A DNA stretch of 64,000 nt from a virus. Of this stretch, positions 24,936-63,631 are shown one piece after another. Under the pieces are notes generated by a model, which worked only from the letters and a program-made list of their open reading frames with translations, did no database searches and had not been told where the DNA came from. The translations under genes and the position numbers were made by a program. Each line of letters begins with the position of its first letter. Positions within the stretch are counted from its first letter, which is position 1. The DNA lies in IMG/VR virus record IMGVR_UViG_3300022932_000017, positions 9,821 to 73,820 of that record. One strand, written 5' to 3'.

Positions 24936-27425
24936 TTATGCCACCATTTGAGGCTGTTCAGGAGCTTCTTCTTGCATCGGCTGACCCATCGCCTCACCTT
25001 GCGGTAATTGTCCTTCCTGTGTAGCCATTTGCTGTTGTTCCATCTGTTGTTGTTCGGCTTGCTGATCTTCCTGTTCCTGCCTTATTTGTTCCATTAAAAT
25101 TTGCTTGTTGGAAATGTCGATCAATCCCACGCCTTCAAAAATAAATCCGGGCAAATCTTTCATTGAACTACCTTCTTTAGAAAGTATTGATTTCATTAGC
25201 TCAACTTTTAGTATAGAGGTATACTTAACAAGTTCGTTTTCTTTCAATGCCTCTGTTTCTTCTACAACACCTTGTGATTTAAGTTGCGCCTTCAATACTT
25301 CTAGCTCTTTGTCTTGAGTTCCTTTTTCTTGTGCCGCAGCAACAGCAGCTTGTGTATTCTCTTGTGAGGCTCGTGAGGCTTGTTCCTGCGCTTCTTTAAG
25401 ACGTTTCTTCATCCTTGATGATAGCATATAGCTTGCATATTTAAGATTGTTCTTAGCAAGCAACCTTACGTCAATAGCATCTTCCAAAGTAATCTCTTTC
25501 TGTGATAATGCCACCTGAATGTTTTGCTCTAAGTATTGAGCTTCCTTGTCATCTATTACCGCCTGTATCTTAACATCAAAGTTGCACTTCTCAAAATCAT
25601 CCGTAGCCTCTAACCTGATATATTCAATTCTTTCAGAACCTAATGCCATTCTGTACCCATCGTAATATCTTTCTCCTTTCTTCTTATGAACGAGTATGTC
25701 CCATAACCTCTGCCCTGCAATCTTAGCAGTTCTTTCGTCTATATCAAGGAAAGCGTCATAAATGTAATTTGAAGCGCTCTCACCGATTTGTTTTGCGTCC
25801 TGTAATGTTTTATTCCCTACAGCTTGATTGGTAATGTTACCTGCCGCTAGGTTATTGTCCCCAATGATCTTTTGAAGTTTATCGTATTCAGCATTCCATA
25901 CCCCCATCAACTGTTCTAATTTAGCAGAGAAAGGAACGTTTGCCGGAGTAATAGGAGGTTGATTGTCCCTAGAGTTAATTCCTTCATCAGAAACTCTCTT
26001 GTAATACTGAATACCCGTTTGTTTGTAGATTTTGTAAAGTTCAAATGGACTTACACTCTCCATTCCCTCTCCCAAAGTAATATCACTCATTTGAGAAATA
26101 TCTACCATGTATCCATCCGGTGCGGCAGCAGCAATGATTTTCTGTTGTTGCAGTTGAACCAATTGCATCATCTTAATAGATGGAATCATAGTTTCAATAA
26201 GCGGAGTATTTACCATCTTATTGTTCCCATACATGTGAGTGACATACGGAAGAGTTACCTCTAAAAGATTTTTGTCATTCTTAACTTGGTTCTTTGCTAA
26301 TCCCCACTCTAAAACAAATTGGCTTTTAGTCAACATAACCCCGACATATTCTACTTCGTATGGTGGAGACTGAATATTTGGTTTTTCAGGGTTTAACTTT
26401 TCTTTTCTGTCTAAAACCTCCTTGCCGAACCTATCTGTGTTAACCTGATATTTTAAGTTGTTTACCGCTTTAAAGGATAGTTGTATTACCTCAACACTAA
26501 ACCCATCGTAAGGTCTGTCAATAGCCTGATTGTATTCAGGTGTCCATCCCCAACCAAAGTTAGTATCGTTGCCGTTAAGACCCTTATTTGATATTGCCAG
26601 TTCAAATAGCTTTTCTTCACCACCAAGTCTAGTAACTGCTTTAGGGTACTTCATCCTTATCTCTGATATTTTCATCAGATTCACCCCCCCCTTGTAAGTA
26701 GCGTCTCTAAAGTCATCCCACTCACTGTAAGAAGATACAATATTCTCCGGCTTAGTTACTCCAATTTTAATCTTGCCGTTACCATCTAGGTAAGTATATG
26801 TTTGGGCGATACCTGCGGTAATCAAATCATATAGAATGCGTTTCTTAATGATCTTATCCCAATTGTTATCGTAAAATATTAAGTCAATGCCCTGTTCTAA
26901 AATAACCTCTTCACGCTCCTTATAGTTGAATCCGAAGTGAATGTCAATCTCCCGTTCGTCTTTAGGATCATCATCACTAAATTCTTCCAGTTCTAATCCA
27001 GACTCCTGTTGTATAGCTTGAATCTTTTCTTTATTCTTCATCTTGAACAAAGCATCCATCTTCGCTTTATCTTTTTTGCTTTGCGTAAAGGGGTCAATAG
27101 CATTTGCCTGAATCTTCTCTATACGCTGCATGTAACGGTCTATAAGACGGTTTACAAAGGGAATAGCAATGGGCGTAGGGGAATAGTCTAGGTTTATCAT
27201 AGACATATCTCCATCAAGGTCTAATATATCTTTATACTCTTGCATGGGTTGTTTACCCATAGCAAATAACCTGTTGTAATCATATCGGTTCCTTCGTCCT
27301 GATGCACCTTCCGTAGTACCGTTCGTCCACTTCTCATAAGCAGAGATTAACAGTCTTTTTCCAAATTCTAAACTATCCTTTGTAGTGTCCGGTGCTATAG
27401 GTGAAAGGTTTACTGCATCATTCAT
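24936..27425 (-). CDS. Portal protein
   Basis: RLFAMGKQPMQEYKDIL...INLDYSPTPIAIPFV motif; follows TerL; Q/E-rich tail. Confidence 0.85.
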   Translation of the reverse strand: MNDAVNLSPIAPDTTKDSLEFGKRLLISAYEKWTNGTTEGASGRRNRYDYNRLFAMGKQPMQEYKDILDLDGDMSMINLDYSPTPIAIPFVNRLIDRYMQRIEKIQANAIDPFTQSKKDKAKMDALFKMKNKEKIQAIQQESGLELEEFSDDDPKDEREIDIHFGFNYKEREEVILEQGIDLIFYDNNWDKIIKKRILYDLITAGIAQTYTYLDGNGKIKIGVTKPENIVSSYSEWDDFRDATYKGGVNLMKISEIRMKYPKAVTRLGGEEKLFELAISNKGLNGNDTNFGWGWTPEYNQAIDRPYDGFSVEVIQLSFKAVNNLKYQVNTDRFGKEVLDRKEKLNPEKPNIQSPPYEVEYVGVMLTKSQFVLEWGLAKNQVKNDKNLLEVTLPYVTHMYGNNKMVNTPLIETMIPSIKMMQLVQLQQQKIIAAAAPDGYMVDISQMSDITLGEGMESVSPFELYKIYKQTGIQYYKRVSDEGINSRDNQPPITPANVPFSAKLEQLMGVWNAEYDKLQKIIGDNNLAAGNITNQAVGNKTLQDAKQIGESASNYIYDAFLDIDERTAKIAGQRLWDILVHKKKGERYYDGYRMALGSERIEYIRLEATDDFEKCNFDVKIQAVIDDKEAQYLEQNIQVALSQKEITLEDAIDVRLLAKNNLKYASYMLSSRMKKRLKEAQEQASRASQENTQAAVAAAQEKGTQDKELEVLKAQLKSQGVVEETEALKENELVKYTSILKVELMKSILSKEGSSMKDLPGFIFEGVGLIDISNKQILMEQIRQEQEDQQAEQQQMEQQQMATQEGQLPQGEAMGQPMQEEAPEQPQMVA

Positions 27426-27452: not shown

Positions 27453-29636
27453 TTATACGTTATATTTCTTTGATTTACGGATTTTCATGAACGTTACGAC
27501 CTTGTTTACTGTTGTTTGTTTGCCTGTAGCTTCTTTCAATCCCATCAGCGCATATCCCCACGCCATACAAGCATCATAGTCTCCACGATCGTTAATATCA
27601 AAGTCCCTCATATCTTTTAGAAGTCTAAGAAACTTGATTTTCTTCATGTTGTTTATGGAGTATTCAATCATTTCCGTTAAATGCTGCTCTCTGGCTTCTT
27701 TATTCTGTGGAGGTACACCATACGTCTCTCTCTTATCAGAAAGTCTTGTAGTCATCAGATAACCAAACTTGTGATCGTGGTTTAATGGAGAGGCTAAACG
27801 TCTTGTGGGTGAAGTAGCATAATCTTCCCAATCTGTAGGGGCACGCTCTGCGAGCATTTTTATGCCGTAGTATTCTAATCCCCAAAATACCTGATCGTGA
27901 AACGCTTCTTTTGTTTTAGGTCTTCCAATAAACATTGCTATAGGCATTCCTGATTTTTCAGGGTTTAACGCATCGTATCTCTTATGAACGATCAAACAAG
28001 CATCAGATCCTTTATCTACAGCCGCCTTAGCATTAGCAAATGTATCTAGTCCGGCAGCACCATATATTGTGTTTTCAGGGCATTTAATGTTTCCCCTATA
28101 CGTAGATCGATTAGAACCTTCATCTAACAGTTCAATGATATACCACATTCCTTTAGGGTCATCTACAGGTATCTTCTTTCCATCATGCCCATTTTTAAAG
28201 CTCATGCGCCTACCGAACTCTTGCTTCCCACCCATACGGACTAATTCATCTTCAATGTACTGGATCTGTTCGTTTAAAGCATCTAAATCAAAATTACACC
28301 TGTTGTTAGCACCCTTAAATACTTCTTTCCATTCAAAAGGGTATTTACGAACCTGCTCTGCATATTGTTCAGGATCATTAGCTTTCATGTTCCTAGCTTC
28401 CTGTAAGAATGCCTTTGCTCCAATTGTAGGGTCAAGACAAGCCAAGTCCCCTGTAGAAGGGTCAATTACCGTAGCCATGAATGCGGATTGTTCAGGAGTA
28501 GGAGTTTCCACTACAGAATTACCGTATTTATCAATATATCCTAATAAACCTCTATACCCTGCAATAAAGAATCTTTTTAAGCACGTCTCTGTTCTACCGA
28601 ACCTGTCTTTCTTTCCGTCAATATGATTTGAACCATCCCATATCTTTCTAAAGTTCTCTCCCCCTTTATCTCCTTTGTTTACCGTACTGAACACCGACAC
28701 GTGACCTCCAATAGAGGAACCTACAACAAGCGTATCACTGATTTTATTTAAAAGGGTTTGTACGTTGACCTTCTCAAACTTACCCGCTTCATCAATGATA
28801 ATCCTTCTTGCACGTCTACCATCATAAGCATTCTCCGCAGTATCTAGGTAATTAATCCTATTGTTCAACCCTTTATCAGAGGTAACCATTTTGTTATTGC
28901 TGCTGATCTTCTTTTGAGGCTTTGCGATATGGATTTCAGATTCAGTTACCTTGTTTAGTTCCGGCATAAAGAACGGAGGTAAGTTTTCCAACCCATTCTT
29001 TATCATCAAGTACATCTCATAAGCATCCGTACCCGTCTTAGATACAATACCTTGTAAAGTATTGTTTTCTATTATGCCTATCTGTAAGTGAATAGATGAT
29101 GCCATAGAGGACAATCCTAAACGTCTACCCTTTATCCCGCAATCCCCTAATGTTCCCCGATCTTTTTCACATAATTCATAGAACCTGTAGTACTCTAGCG
29201 AAGTATCCTTATAAGATGGGAATATCTGTTCAATTAATAAAACAAACCATTGGTGGAAAAATAAACAGTATTTATTAAAGTAGGTTGGCACTCCGTTTAT
29301 CATTATCCATTCTCCGGTATGCAAACGTTCAATAGCAGACTCGTACCAAGTCATCTGTTCTTCCCACTTCTTGTACTCTCTTTTCTCTGCGGCATTTAAA
29401 GTATTCTGTCTCTTTTCGTAATTAGGGATAGGGTTAGTAAACCATAAACGTCCTAATAAAGGGTCAGTATTCCATTCCCATCTTTCGTATTCAGTATCCC
29501 GAACCCATACCTGATCTTCTATGTTCTCTTCCCAATTACGAATAGACCTTAATGGAGGGATAGGAGGATCTGTATAAATTAAACCCTGAACTTCATGTTC
29601 TACAACCGCTCCTACATTAATCTTACTTTGCGCCAT
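27453..29636 (-). CDS. terL: Terminase large subunit
   Basis: Walker A-like KGRRLGLS, Walker B IIIDEAGK, coupling motif FSTV, nuclease acidic motifs GLDTF and DYDACMA. Confidence 0.9.
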   Translation of the reverse strand: MAQSKINVGAVVEHEVQGLIYTDPPIPPLRSIRNWEENIEDQVWVRDTEYERWEWNTDPLLGRLWFTNPIPNYEKRQNTLNAAEKREYKKWEEQMTWYESAIERLHTGEWIMINGVPTYFNKYCLFFHQWFVLLIEQIFPSYKDTSLEYYRFYELCEKDRGTLGDCGIKGRRLGLSSMASSIHLQIGIIENNTLQGIVSKTGTDAYEMYLMIKNGLENLPPFFMPELNKVTESEIHIAKPQKKISSNNKMVTSDKGLNNRINYLDTAENAYDGRRARRIIIDEAGKFEKVNVQTLLNKISDTLVVGSSIGGHVSVFSTVNKGDKGGENFRKIWDGSNHIDGKKDRFGRTETCLKRFFIAGYRGLLGYIDKYGNSVVETPTPEQSAFMATVIDPSTGDLACLDPTIGAKAFLQEARNMKANDPEQYAEQVRKYPFEWKEVFKGANNRCNFDLDALNEQIQYIEDELVRMGGKQEFGRRMSFKNGHDGKKIPVDDPKGMWYIIELLDEGSNRSTYRGNIKCPENTIYGAAGLDTFANAKAAVDKGSDACLIVHKRYDALNPEKSGMPIAMFIGRPKTKEAFHDQVFWGLEYYGIKMLAERAPTDWEDYATSPTRRLASPLNHDHKFGYLMTTRLSDKRETYGVPPQNKEAREQHLTEMIEYSINNMKKIKFLRLLKDMRDFDINDRGDYDACMAWGYALMGLKEATGKQTTVNKVVTFMKIRKSKKYNV

Positions 29637-57752: not shown

Positions 57753-58835
57753 ATGAAAGCAGTAATAGGCATGGGATATGGCGATGAAGGTAAGGGGCTA
57801 ACAACCTCTTACCTTTGTTCCAAAACTATAAACCCACTAGTAGTAAGGTTTAACGGAGGTCATCAGGCAGGACACACAGTAGTCTATGAAGGACAGAGGC
57901 ATATATTCTCCAATTTCGGATCTGGTAGTCTACAAGGCGTTCCTACATTATGGAGTCACTTTTGTACCTTTCATCCTAGTCACGTTCTAAACGAATACAA
58001 TGCTCTTAATAACCCTAAATTATTCGTACATGGATTATGCCCTATTACTACTCCTTACGAAATCCAAGCAGGATGCGAAAGAGAGAAAGCGGTTCAACAT
58101 GGTTCTGTAGGCTTAGGGTTCGGTGCTACCATACAAAGACAGCAAGATTATTTCAATCTATATGTACAGGATTTGCCTTTTGAAAGTATTGTGAGAGCTA
58201 AACTTCATAACATTTCTCTTTACTACGGGTTTAAATTAGATATAACACAGTTTTTAGCCGATATAAGAGAGGTTCTTGATGTGATTGATATAGTTAACTA
58301 CTACTATAACTTATTCATGCATTACAACCCTATTTTTGAAGGAGCGCAAGGCATATTGTTAGATCAGGACTTCGGTTTCTTCCCAAATGTTACAAGGAGC
58401 AATACTACAACACATAATGTTTTATCTCTTACCGAAGCAGTTGAGGTATTCTATGTAACTAGAACGTACCAAACAAGGCATGGAAATGGATTTATGACTA
58501 ATGAAGGTCTGCCATTAGAATTGGTTAATATAGAGAATGAAACTAACGTTTTAGATGAATGGCAGGGAGTATTCAGGAAATCAGTGCTAGATATTGATTT
58601 ATTGAACTATGCTTTAACATGCGACAACAATTTCTCTAAAAACTGCCAGAAGAATCTAATTATAAGTTGTGTTGACCAAACTGGATATGATTTTGATGTT
58701 ACTGTTGGAGGCAAGATTAAAAGAATTGAATTAGTAGAATTACCAACTCTGTTAAATGCCAAATTTGAAAACGTATTATTCAGTAAAGGCGATTCATTGG
58801 ATTGCATCGAGTCCTTACCTCAATTAGTGTATTAA
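57753..58835 (+). CDS. Divergent adenylosuccinate synthetase (PurA)-like ligase
   Basis: GYGDEGKG, RFNGGHQAGHTV, FEGAQGILLD, FPNVTRS, TRTYQTRHGNG. Confidence 0.9.
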   Translation: MKAVIGMGYGDEGKGLTTSYLCSKTINPLVVRFNGGHQAGHTVVYEGQRHIFSNFGSGSLQGVPTLWSHFCTFHPSHVLNEYNALNNPKLFVHGLCPITTPYEIQAGCEREKAVQHGSVGLGFGATIQRQQDYFNLYVQDLPFESIVRAKLHNISLYYGFKLDITQFLADIREVLDVIDIVNYYYNLFMHYNPIFEGAQGILLDQDFGFFPNVTRSNTTTHNVLSLTEAVEVFYVTRTYQTRHGNGFMTNEGLPLELVNIENETNVLDEWQGVFRKSVLDIDLLNYALTCDNNFSKNCQKNLIISCVDQTGYDFDVTVGGKIKRIELVELPTLLNAKFENVLFSKGDSLDCIESLPQLVY

Positions 58836-60892: not shown

Positions 60893-61216
60893 ATGCCAAT
60901 AACAACATGGCTGTCCAATCAAGAATTGGAAAACTACAGCACAGTACAAGACAAGGAATTAAACGACTTATTGCATGAAGTTAGAGAACTTATGCCAGAT
61001 GTATACATCTGCGAATACAGTGTAGTTAAAAAGCCTTTATTCGGACGAACAATACGTACAACAACATACGAGGTATTCCATAAGATGCTTGACAATACAG
61101 GAGAAGTACAGATAATGAATCTTCCCTCTAGCAATGCAGGATATGTAGCTAATTACTTGTATGGACTTATTAATGGATATCATAAATGTTTGAAATATGG
61201 AAACTCCGAAAGCTAA
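60893..61216 (+). CDS. Hypothetical protein
   Basis: Operon packing. Confidence 0.65.
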   Translation: MPITTWLSNQELENYSTVQDKELNDLLHEVRELMPDVYICEYSVVKKPLFGRTIRTTTYEVFHKMLDNTGEVQIMNLPSSNAGYVANYLYGLINGYHKCLKYGNSES

Positions 61217-61526
61217 TGAAGAAATTCCTCAATATGATGGTAAAAGACTAAGAAGTGGATTACTGGAACTAGAATGGTTGCTTGAGCAACAGGCAATAGA
61301 TAGGTTCAGACAGCAGTTCCCTAATGGCTTTCCATTTAACGAGGTTTTAAAGGACTGTAAAGGCCAAGTAGTCGGAAAGGCTATAATCACATCAACTGTA
61401 GATTTAAATTCTTCTGATAGCTTTAAAAAGATGTGGGAAGACAGCGAACATAAAGATACGTTACACAGAGTATTTGTTCCGGCATATTACCAAAATAAAA
61501 AAGACAAAAAAGATGGAGAAATTTAA
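61197..61526 (+). CDS. Small protein resembling the Walker B-to-coupling-motif segment of TerL
   Basis: YDGKRL, VVGKAIITSTV, FKKMWEDS and LHRVFVPAY are colinear with TerL YDGRRA, IGGHVSVFSTV, FRKIWDGS and LKRFFIAGY. Confidence 0.6.
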   Translation: METPKANEEIPQYDGKRLRSGLLELEWLLEQQAIDRFRQQFPNGFPFNEVLKDCKGQVVGKAIITSTVDLNSSDSFKKMWEDSEHKDTLHRVFVPAYYQNKKDKKDGEI

Positions 61527-62337
61527 AATACTTGAGACAGCCATGAGTAAATATCCTTATGGTACAAAATTTAAGACACCTAAAAGCGGACGAGAAGTAA
61601 CCTCTACAGGCTGTTTTCATATTCTTGACGATTATGAGGGAATTGATTGCGCAGATAATAGTGGAGAATTCGTTTTGCATAACGGAAAATGGGCTGAAAT
61701 AATCCCATCAGAACCAGAAAAGTCCGGACTGCTTGACTGCAAATGCGCAATACAAATCTATAACGAGAGACAATATAATTTGTTGATGCAACATTATGAA
61801 GATAAAAATTGGTGTCAAGTTGCAAATTTAGATCTGACATGGGCGAGTAGGCAAGGAGAAAGACTTGCTGGATATAATGCTATGACTTACCATGATAAGT
61901 TCTTCTCAATAATAACACCGTCAGTTGATTACAAAGTTATCCCCTTCGATGACTTCGCAAAAGAGGTAGGAATTGATTTTCCTGTTTACATTATGGATTC
62001 AAAAGATGGAGTGCCGCTTTATGAAGGTGATGGATATGTTCAGGTGTATAGTGACTCAAGATGGCATATTGAGATGGATTCCATAAATAGTGATTACAGA
62101 TTGACTTCGATAGATGCTGTAGTTACTATGCCTCACAAATACAAATCTTTCCACTCAAAAGAAGCCGCAGAGGCTTGGATAAAAGAACAGAACAGCCCAA
62201 AGGAGGTAATAGTTAAACTACATGGTGGTTACACCGTAAGGGTTGAAAAAGACAAAGCAACTTTTGCTATCAATAACTTCGGTATTACAGGAAAAGAATT
62301 GGAGGAAATCTATCAAACTTATAAATCACTAAAATGA
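61513..62337 (+). CDS. Hypothetical multidomain phage protein
   Basis: KYPYGTKF...GKWAEII; SKDGVPLYEGD; FHSKEAAEAWI. Confidence 0.7.
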   Translation: MEKFKILETAMSKYPYGTKFKTPKSGREVTSTGCFHILDDYEGIDCADNSGEFVLHNGKWAEIIPSEPEKSGLLDCKCAIQIYNERQYNLLMQHYEDKNWCQVANLDLTWASRQGERLAGYNAMTYHDKFFSIITPSVDYKVIPFDDFAKEVGIDFPVYIMDSKDGVPLYEGDGYVQVYSDSRWHIEMDSINSDYRLTSIDAVVTMPHKYKSFHSKEAAEAWIKEQNSPKEVIVKLHGGYTVRVEKDKATFAINNFGITGKELEEIYQTYKSLK

Positions 62338-62696
62338 GAAAGAACAAACAAGACATTCTCGAAGACGAAACAATAACCGTTGACCTTTCAGAATACGATG
62401 CTATATTCAAAGCAATGGATAGGTGGCACACGCAAGAATCAGCTTTACTTAAATCCTGTTATGGTACTGCGGTAGAGAACAACAATAAGCTTGCATTGGA
62501 GAATAACAGGCTAATGTCAGAGTTGACTATCTTAAAACAGAAAAATGCTGACTTATTTGATGCCGGACAAAAATTACATGGACTAATATCAAACATAAAA
62601 CACGAAACAGATTATCTACCTGACTTTTATTACGAATGGGCGGGTAAAGTTTTAAATGAAATAGACGAAATATTATCAGACGATGAACAAACCTAA
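62334..62696 (+). CDS. Hypothetical coiled-coil protein
   Basis: ATGA overlap. Confidence 0.6.
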   Translation: MRKNKQDILEDETITVDLSEYDAIFKAMDRWHTQESALLKSCYGTAVENNNKLALENNRLMSELTILKQKNADLFDAGQKLHGLISNIKHETDYLPDFYYEWAGKVLNEIDEILSDDEQT

Positions 62697-62865
62697 AGAT
62701 AGACCGATGTACCCTGCATTAGAACAACGCATCATCAAACAGGAGGCACGTATTAAGCGTTCAGGGTTATTAAACTTCATGGATTGGAACCTAACATCAC
62801 CTACGCTTTCAAGAAGCTTATACAGCCTTAAATTCAATAATAGTATAACCATTAAATAAACTGGC

Positions 62866-63048
62866 ATGAAAGAGAATAGACACGAACGCCATGACCACTA
62901 TTGGATAAAATCAGGAGGACTTTACGAATCATTTAGAAAGTCACGTGGAGATCTTGGGTATAACTTTATAAAGGAAGTTGATTTACCTGACTGCAATAAA
63001 CTAACAAAGGAACAGATTAAAGATATATTCGATGGAGAGGAAACTTAA
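62866..63048 (+). CDS. Hypothetical protein
   Basis: 60-aa ORF in the operon. Confidence 0.45.
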   Translation: MKENRHERHDHYWIKSGGLYESFRKSRGDLGYNFIKEVDLPDCNKLTKEQIKDIFDGEET

Positions 63049-63631
63049 ACTATGTTCAGGATGCCAGACCATGAAGGTAATCTGGAAAGCAAAAACAAAA
63101 GAACACGGTATGCTTTGCAAAGACTGCTACCATAAACCTAAAGTAGGTGATACATTCAAAGAAGACAAGATAAGCTATGATTCAAATGGAGTACCTTACA
63201 ATAAGGAGTTTAAAATAGTCGATATAAAGGCGTCAGAGACAACTAAGCACCAAATAAAAGCTAACAGTCCAAACGAGATACCAAGATTGCTTAGAGAAGC
63301 TGAAAAAGTGTTTAACGCATACATCAGAAAGAGAGATAGTTTTGAAGGAAGATTTATTTGTATATCATCAGGGGAAGAATTAGATGTTAAATTCATGCAA
63401 GCGGGTCATTTTTATCCTAAAACCTATTCATCACTTCGGTTTAACGAAGACAACGTTCATGGAGAAAGCACACAAGCTAATTGCATGGATATAAATCATC
63501 TTGAAGGCTACAAGATAAATCTTATCAACAAGATTGGAATAACCCGTTACAACGCCTTAAATGAGGTTAAAAACGTGATTAAGAAATGGGATAAACAAGA
63601 GCTATTGGAGATAATTAAAAAATATAAATAA
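63032..63631 (+). CDS. NinG/Rap-like recombination endonuclease
   Basis: VFNAYIRKRD...CISSG...QAGHF...LRFNEDNVH...YKINLINKIG. Confidence 0.85.
   Translation: MERKLKLCSGCQTMKVIWKAKTKEHGMLCKDCYHKPKVGDTFKEDKISYDSNGVPYNKEFKIVDIKASETTKHQIKANSPNEIPRLLREAEKVFNAYIRKRDSFEGRFICISSGEELDVKFMQAGHFYPKTYSSLRFNEDNVHGESTQANCMDINHLEGYKINLINKIGITRYNALNEVKNVIKKWDKQELLEIIKKYK

Follow-up and report, generated by a model that had tools for sequence, protein, structure and literature searches.

A family of small phage proteins homologous to part of the terminase ATPase core

Genomic setting

The window, as we call the whole 64,000-nucleotide stretch analysed here, corresponds to bases 9821-73820 of a 73,820-base IMG/VR record (IMGVR_UViG_3300022932_000017) that is rated complete by CheckV. 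A minus-strand block (30-43981) carries a methyltransferase, the terminase large subunit (TerL), the portal (24936-27425) and structural genes. A plus-strand block, composed mostly of small genes, begins at about 45 kb, occupies the remainder of the record and contains the gene described in this work, which we refer to as the TerL-fragment gene. It is tightly packed among its small plus-strand neighbours, divergent from the structural module and not placed beside the portal (Table 1). The original prediction had described an intact open reading frame overlapping the genes on both sides; its coordinates, length and neighbours all agree with the ORF listing. The downstream overlap amounts to 14 nt if the neighbour starts at the ATG at 61513, or to 53 nt if it starts at the TTG at 61474. 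A Pfam scan of this downstream neighbour identified no family.

Table 1 Features of the TerL-fragment gene, its neighbours and the terminase large subunit in the window.
Feature	Position	Strand	Details
TerL-fragment gene (P0001)	61197..61526	+	ATG start, 109 aa; ORF listing, homologues and TerL homology
Upstream neighbour, 107 aa, no assigned function	60893..61216	+	20-nt overlap with the TerL-fragment ORF
Downstream neighbour, ~274 aa, no assigned function	61513..62337	+	Overlaps the end of the TerL-fragment ORF
YDG motif (Y13-G15)	61233..61241	+	Matches TerL-invariant Y271 D272 G273, just before Walker B
Residues 20-40, family-specific segment replacing the Walker B strand	61254..61316	+	Consensus EYERQMW
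G60-V67, GK, strand and S-T-V block	61374..61397	+	Equivalent to the TerL strand ending in the C (coupling) motif
F76-S83, helix FxxxWxxS	61422..61445	+	Matches TerL-invariant F329, W333, S336; modelled helix 76-81
L89-Y97, strand L-[HY]-R-x-F-x-P	61461..61487	+	Matches TerL K354 R355 F357; modelled strand 89-95
Working terminase large subunit, 727 aa	27453..29636	-	phrog_6681, E 9.7e-71; 201 homologues found
TerL residues 270-375, stretch homologous to the small protein	28512..28829	-	hhalign ranges 270-361, 268-373

Judging from the gene layout, the plus-strand block, and the TerL-fragment gene with it, would be early, preceding TerL. Scans of the region for promoters, terminators and the Bacteroidota promoter pattern stayed at chance level. 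A near-consensus sigma-70-like site (TTGACA, 16 nt, GATAAT; 11/12 matches) occupies 61089-61116 (+), 80 nt 5' of the TerL-fragment ATG and within the upstream ORF; sites of this kind are as frequent in the region as chance would predict.

The same plus-strand block encodes a NinG-family protein (63032-63631 (+), Pfam E 2.4e-18) and an adenylosuccinate-synthetase-like (PurA-like) protein (57753-58835 (+), E 2.2e-35). The upstream neighbour has a homologue at L005 6969-7283, on contig G002 (37% identity, E 2.8e-19), and G002 thus carries both this gene and a small TerL-fragment gene; no homologue of the upstream neighbour was found in G001, in G013 or in five close relatives. By eye, a gene of about 57-60 aa with an initial (I)KDRPM / IKHRPM-type motif is common to the small-gene blocks of three phages (window 62683-62859 (+), L002 5327-5500 and L005 7470-7655).

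A conserved family of small proteins

A word-indexed protein search with the 109-aa ORF returned nothing but the ORF itself. Exhaustive HMMER search detected three small relatives, and with a profile search the number of members rose to 16 (88-134 aa). Additional copies lie in three IMG/VR phage contigs, at L002 4270-4593, L005 8001-8354 and L057 1402-1857, the genome of the first being 75.6 kb long with terminal repeats. Altogether the family comprises at least 19 intact small proteins of 88-151 aa, from Bacteroidota-type phages of about 75 kb.

The homologues share 26-47% identity with the window's copy, with 7 invariant and 9 near-invariant columns. Pseudogene-like decay, which would have spoken against the original prediction, is not seen: there is no stop or frameshift in at least 19 homologues, and the motifs and a similar length are kept. 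The gene is moreover tightly packed in four different phage contexts. Intact copies, conserved motifs, the divergence between homologues and the four genomic contexts together argue for purifying selection on the TerL-fragment gene.

The proteins are mostly acidic, with a pI of 4.4-5.7 in 14 of the 16 members and acidic C-terminal tails in most; this is less marked in the window's copy. Pfam yielded no family for the ORF or for any of the 16 members, a search of PDB sequences with the family profile gave nothing relevant, and a nucleotide search of phage records with the TerL-fragment gene found no match. With no Pfam family and a weak match to the TerL PHROG in few members, the small proteins constitute a new, unannotated family. 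Five stretches of a 2024-aa protein (P0124) match residues 5-43 of the small ORF (E 4.7e-5), which is probably a repetitive or low-complexity coincidence.

Homology with the terminase large subunit

The small ORF had been reported to contain four colinear blocks matching the phage's own TerL, and all four are found in the sequences as described. BLASTP aligns ORF residues 13-97 with TerL residues 271-361 (nt ~28554-28826) at 24% identity, with an E-value of 7e-4 for the pair and of 0.023 against the window's 136 ORFs. When all ORFs of the window are compared with each other, about five unrelated pairs equal this match. Pairwise BLAST was rejected as sole evidence of homology, being at chance level in the all-against-all comparison.

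The profile search against TerL proposed as a check proved significant. Aligned by hhalign with a profile of 24 TerLs of the window's clade, the family gave a probability of 97% and an E-value of 1.3e-10 when represented by 4 sequences, and 95% and 1.9e-8 when represented by 16. The 16-sequence alignment spans TerL residues 268-373, with IDEYGF facing YIDKYG as a fifth block. As controls, the best of 100 column shuffles reached E 0.01 and the reversed profile 0.7.

Searches in both directions are reciprocal. Within the window, the TerL HMM matches the TerL-fragment ORF at 6e-4, the next match being at 0.056; conversely, a family HMM from which the window's copy was excluded matches TerL at 2.5e-4, ahead of the next match at 0.75. 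The family HMM also matches the TerL ORF in 15/15 related phage genomes, at E-values from 9e-9 to 3e-3 per genome. The top PHROG family is phrog_6681 (TerL), matched by 4/16 members, and a tblastn search of 50,697 phage records with member P0122 retrieved solely TerLs of Cellulophaga Pachyviridae phages. Lastly, the columns conserved within the small family are the same blocks that make up the TerL match.

We consider that these profile comparisons make the homology of the small family to TerL residues ~270-375 secure. The alternative, that the four-block likeness is coincidental, could draw on the ordinary single-pair E-value in the all-against-all comparison of the window's ORFs. It is contradicted by every family-level test, and the profile and shuffle controls all but disprove it; its probability is next to negligible.

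Retained and lost terminase elements

The homologous stretch of TerL includes Walker B, the C motif and the helix and strand that follow, up to YIDKYG. The P-loop of TerL, which has a deviant form in the window's clade (GIKGRRxGxSS, residues 167-177), lies outside it: the homology starts at TerL residue ~268, about 100 residues past the P-loop. As the original prediction had it, Walker A is absent, with neither GxxxxGK[ST] nor KGRR anywhere in the 109 aa, and so is the nuclease, the protein stopping some 10 residues beyond the strand with which the homology ends. The same prediction had read the Walker B sequence as GLLELE. This is one possible placement and is not secure, as three alignments place the stretch differently: LLELE faces IIIDE in one of them, whereas in the others the invariant E30 faces TerL E283. 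Since the P-loop and the nuclease are absent, the conclusion that the protein is not an ATPase stands whatever the reading of Walker B. By its sequence, the TerL-fragment protein cannot be a packaging ATPase; with catalysis excluded, it would have to act by binding.

The retained elements are distributed along the whole fragment. The YDG motif is kept in 13-16 of the 16 members and in at least 85% of 27 TerLs, and the basic stretch that follows it, just 5' of the Walker B position, is retained as well. Residues 20-40 align unstably with TerL; E30 and Q32 are invariant in the family, and AlphaFold models the segment as helical with low confidence (pLDDT ~57-69). Residues G60-V67, modelled as a strand over 58-66 in a low-confidence AlphaFold prediction, have as counterparts in TerL G311, S317, T318 and V319. 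The C motif is therefore present: most members retain the S-T-V of the window's copy (S317 T318 V319 in TerL), and the Thr beside the C-motif Ser is retained throughout the family alignment.

Three TerL lineages share 38 conserved columns; 11 of these persist in 12 or more of the 16 small proteins, and four more partly. The 11 comprise YDG, a Glu, L303, G311, the C-motif Ser, W333, S336, R355 and F357. Polar TerL motif residues are thus kept that have no obvious role in a fragment devoid of a P-loop, which suggests that the likeness to TerL is itself under selection.

Structure prediction gives no confident fold for the protein alone: the pLDDT of the AlphaFold models was 50.9 with 5 sequences and 56.7 with 16. 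Neither Foldseek against the PDB nor VIA-align wide found a match to the 16-sequence model (best Z 2.2), which is too poor to be informative. The ESM Atlas offered no usable lead, and the model that it produced itself had a pLDDT of 0.36.

These conservation patterns bear on whether the family still acts through its resemblance to TerL. It is possible that a captured TerL piece was exapted as a scaffold for an unrelated role in host takeover or anti-defence. Such a role would fall to the family-specific parts (EYERQMW helix, PDGFPW loop and acidic tail), with folding as the sole reason for keeping the TerL-like residues. Small early phage genes mostly have host targets. Nothing in TerL corresponds to the stretch that is most family-specific and strongly conserved (E30, Q32, P42; EYERQMW...PDGFP), and acidic C-terminal tails are found in most members, both of which favour this reading. 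The retention of polar TerL motif residues without an obvious folding role, as in YDG and the C-motif S-T, speaks against it, and on balance we regard it as doubtful though a serious contender.

Origin and distribution

The original prediction held that the gene is too diverged to be a recent duplication, and a tree of the homologous segment bears this out. The small proteins fall outside the window-type TerL clade, which is well supported (97) and excludes them, and form one group (SH-aLRT 72) near the Pachyviridae-type TerLs. Motif detail is likewise nearest to the Pachyviridae-type TerLs (TGKxMxxSTV, SGLYRxFxPA, DEYGF). Tracking of the cognate TerL by co-evolution or gene conversion was not seen: the TerL encoded in the same genome is never the one that a small protein resembles most. 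One group outside the TerL clade, with no member closest to its own TerL, points to an old single origin followed by spread. On these relationships, the TerL-fragment family arose once, long ago, from a piece of TerL reaching from just before Walker B, across the strand with the C motif, to the last strand of the Rossmann core of the ATPase.

Its distribution is patchy. Only 1/15 TerL relatives has the small gene, namely G013, the most distant of them with 39% TerL identity. In five complete relatives neither neighbour of the window's gene is present, and an empty syntenic site is thus undefinable. Patchy copies and absent neighbours indicate optional cargo of a hypervariable region rather than a component of the core packaging machinery. 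Downstream of the small gene in G013 lies a gene (L057 1854-2321) for a 155-aa protein with an HExxH sequence (HECLH); the protein may be a small metallopeptidase.

Several TerL relatives (P0047, P0051-P0054, P0077 and P0105) contain inteins, recognised by Hint / LAGLIDADG Pfam matches. The insertion point is exactly after Walker B (...IDE), with the C-extein resuming at TerL residue ~284, and so falls within the stretch homologous to the small gene. HNH endonuclease-like genes occur next to the small gene in L002 (4472-5005) and one gene away from it in L005 (8877-9332); none is adjacent to it in the window or in L057. The inteins at Walker B in relatives and the HNH genes by the small gene in two genomes make a homing origin possible, and a homing event may have taken place when the fragment arose. 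One related idea, in which the fragment serves as a repair donor for a homing-cut TerL, was rejected: at 25-35% protein identity, no nucleotide similarity is left for a recombination template.

Could the gene be just a relic with no function, brought into the early region as a TerL fragment through mobile-endonuclease or intein homing and not decayed yet? The position of the inteins in relatives, exactly at Walker B and within the homologous stretch, would fit such an event, as would the HNH endonuclease genes close to the small gene (adjacent in L002, nearby in L005). We nonetheless find it very improbable, given that at least 19 intact copies persist at 26-47% identity to the window's copy with their motifs kept and no stop or frameshift, that the family is one old group, and that the gene is tightly packed in its different phage contexts.

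Possible functions

Our best guess, ranked first and held tentatively, is that the small protein is a TerL look-alike engaging TerL-sensing defences, either Upx or Avs1-3. In the proposed sequence of events, it would be made before TerL and would present the TerL core strands, with the flanking YDG loop, to a TerL sensor of the host. Candidate sensors are of the Upx type, which would thread unfolded strands of the ATPase core by beta-augmentation, or of the Avs1-3 type. The sensor would then be occupied without the activating contact being completed, and the abortive infection triggered by TerL would be blunted.

Several observations favour a decoy. Polar, non-core TerL positions are kept (YDG, the C-motif Ser); the gene is an accessory one in a variable region, and the small protein is not tuned to its own TerL; and it is acidic, like many anti-defence proteins. 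Phage proteins of comparable type have been described: Vs.8 of T4 and Ksap1/2 are TerL-ATPase-like proteins predicted to sit in the terminase pocket of Avs2 (Evans et al. 2026, PMC13601566), and an anti-defence role for them was raised by the same authors (PMC13601566). Upx senses TerL and was modelled as threading its unfolded strands b1, b4, b5 and b6 by beta-augmentation (PMC13601566); one tested Upx homologue comes from a Bacteroidota (PMC13601566). A small, poorly folding protein made of post-Walker B strands is a plausible ligand for Upx.

Other observations weaken the decoy reading. The TerL-like small proteins tested so far, Vs.8, Ksap1 and Ksap2, all activate Avs2 and none blocks it (PMC13601566). 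EcAvs2 buries ~2,800 Å2 of TerL and contacts the TerL-bound ATP and the hydration shell of the active-site Mg2+, and the fragment has no P-loop. Avs sensors envelop the core of their target (PMC13581612), which a 100-residue piece could not reproduce. The anti-Avs proteins named in the EVADES preprint, the ORF55 ligase and ORF83, are not mimics (10.1101/2025.06.06.658234). For Upx, strand b1, also threaded in the models, is missing from the fragment. The published Avs2 contacts are unmappable on the window's TerL, which is too distant from solved terminases: a TerL family profile gave no terminase match among PDB sequences, and E 0.25 against T7 gp19.

A more specific form of the look-alike reading, that the family is an early, poorly folding mimic of an immune target which competitively antagonises Upx or Avs1-3, and one of several such mimics to have evolved independently in phage lineages unrelated to each other, must be put forward with still more reserve.

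The fragment might alternatively interfere with packaging or regulate it: bound to TerL, or to one of its partners (TerS or the portal, for example), it would poison or time motor assembly. Such interference could be directed at a rival phage or satellite, or at the phage's own motor in the early stage of infection. The subunits of TerL function together as a ring, and pieces of enzymes that oligomerise commonly have dominant-negative effects. The basic stretch upstream of Walker B harbours a trans-acting arginine in some TerLs. The greater likeness of the window's copy to Pachyviridae-type TerLs than to its own TerL would fit a foreign target, and there is a precedent for a small TerL-binding packaging inhibitor in Gpi of the PLE satellite (10.1101/2024.04.22.590561). 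Against this, the homologous segment consists mostly of buried core strands and is not a known subunit interface. In G013 the small gene coexists with a Pachyviridae-type TerL, and self-poisoning would have to be avoided there; the absence of the gene from 14/15 relatives shows that it is not a core packaging factor. We see interference with packaging as rather unlikely, though a close rival of the look-alike reading.

Altogether, it appears from sequence comparison that the small gene encodes a TerL-derived accessory protein kept by selection, which probably acts by binding, perhaps as a look-alike in the conflict between phage and host. Terminase is among the principal proteins that betray tailed phages to bacteria, the sensors being Avs1-3 and Upx. 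The case described here is a catalytically dead sub-domain copy of TerL that selection seems to have kept and that is carried as an optional gene. Were TerL the target instead, the phage would be encoding an inhibitor of packaging that stems from the motor itself.

Comparison with known systems

The closest known proteins are the TerLs of Pachyviridae-like Bacteroidota podophages (phrog_6681; e.g. gp098 of Cellulophaga phage phi13:2), with which the small family shares homology over ~100 residues of the ATPase core. The motifs common to both are YDG, GK-x-M-x-x-STV, F-x-x-x-W-x-x-S, SGLYR-x-F-x-PA and DEYGF. In contrast to these TerLs, the small protein is about 1/7 as long and lacks the P-loop, the nuclease and a secure Walker B; its gene stands in a small-gene block instead of by the portal, and is optional among relatives.

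Like the members of the small family, Vs.8 of T4 is a small protein descended from the TerL ATPase domain, with a gene lying apart from the packaging genes and a distribution limited to certain phage taxa. It is a TerL-ATPase paralogue, toxic in combination with EcAvs2 (PMC13601566). With 219 aa, it is reported to retain both Walker motifs (A and B) and a complete ATPase fold (PMC13601566), whereas the small family covers the C-terminal third of the core only. A relation between the two was considered and rejected: hhalign of the small family against Vs.8 gave E 0.2 and a probability of 0.3%, i.e. no detectable sequence relation, which points to independent origins. Next to Vs.8, the small family thus represents a second, independently derived kind of accessory protein descended from TerL.

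Ksap1 and Ksap2 are likewise small, lineage-restricted phage proteins with a likeness to the TerL ATPase; they have a TerL-ATPase-like secondary structure and are predicted to occupy the sensor's terminase pocket (PMC11564622, PMC13601566). By their description, they are set apart from the small family in that they are triggers of Avs2, not inhibitors, and in that their likeness to TerL is structural only, whereas that of the small family is at the sequence level.

Gpi of the Vibrio PLE satellite and the small protein are both small accessory proteins with a proposed role concerning TerL. Gpi is encoded by a satellite, is not reported to be TerL-derived and has been shown to bind TerL; the small protein, in contrast, is encoded by a complete phage and derived from TerL, and its binding to TerL is hypothetical.
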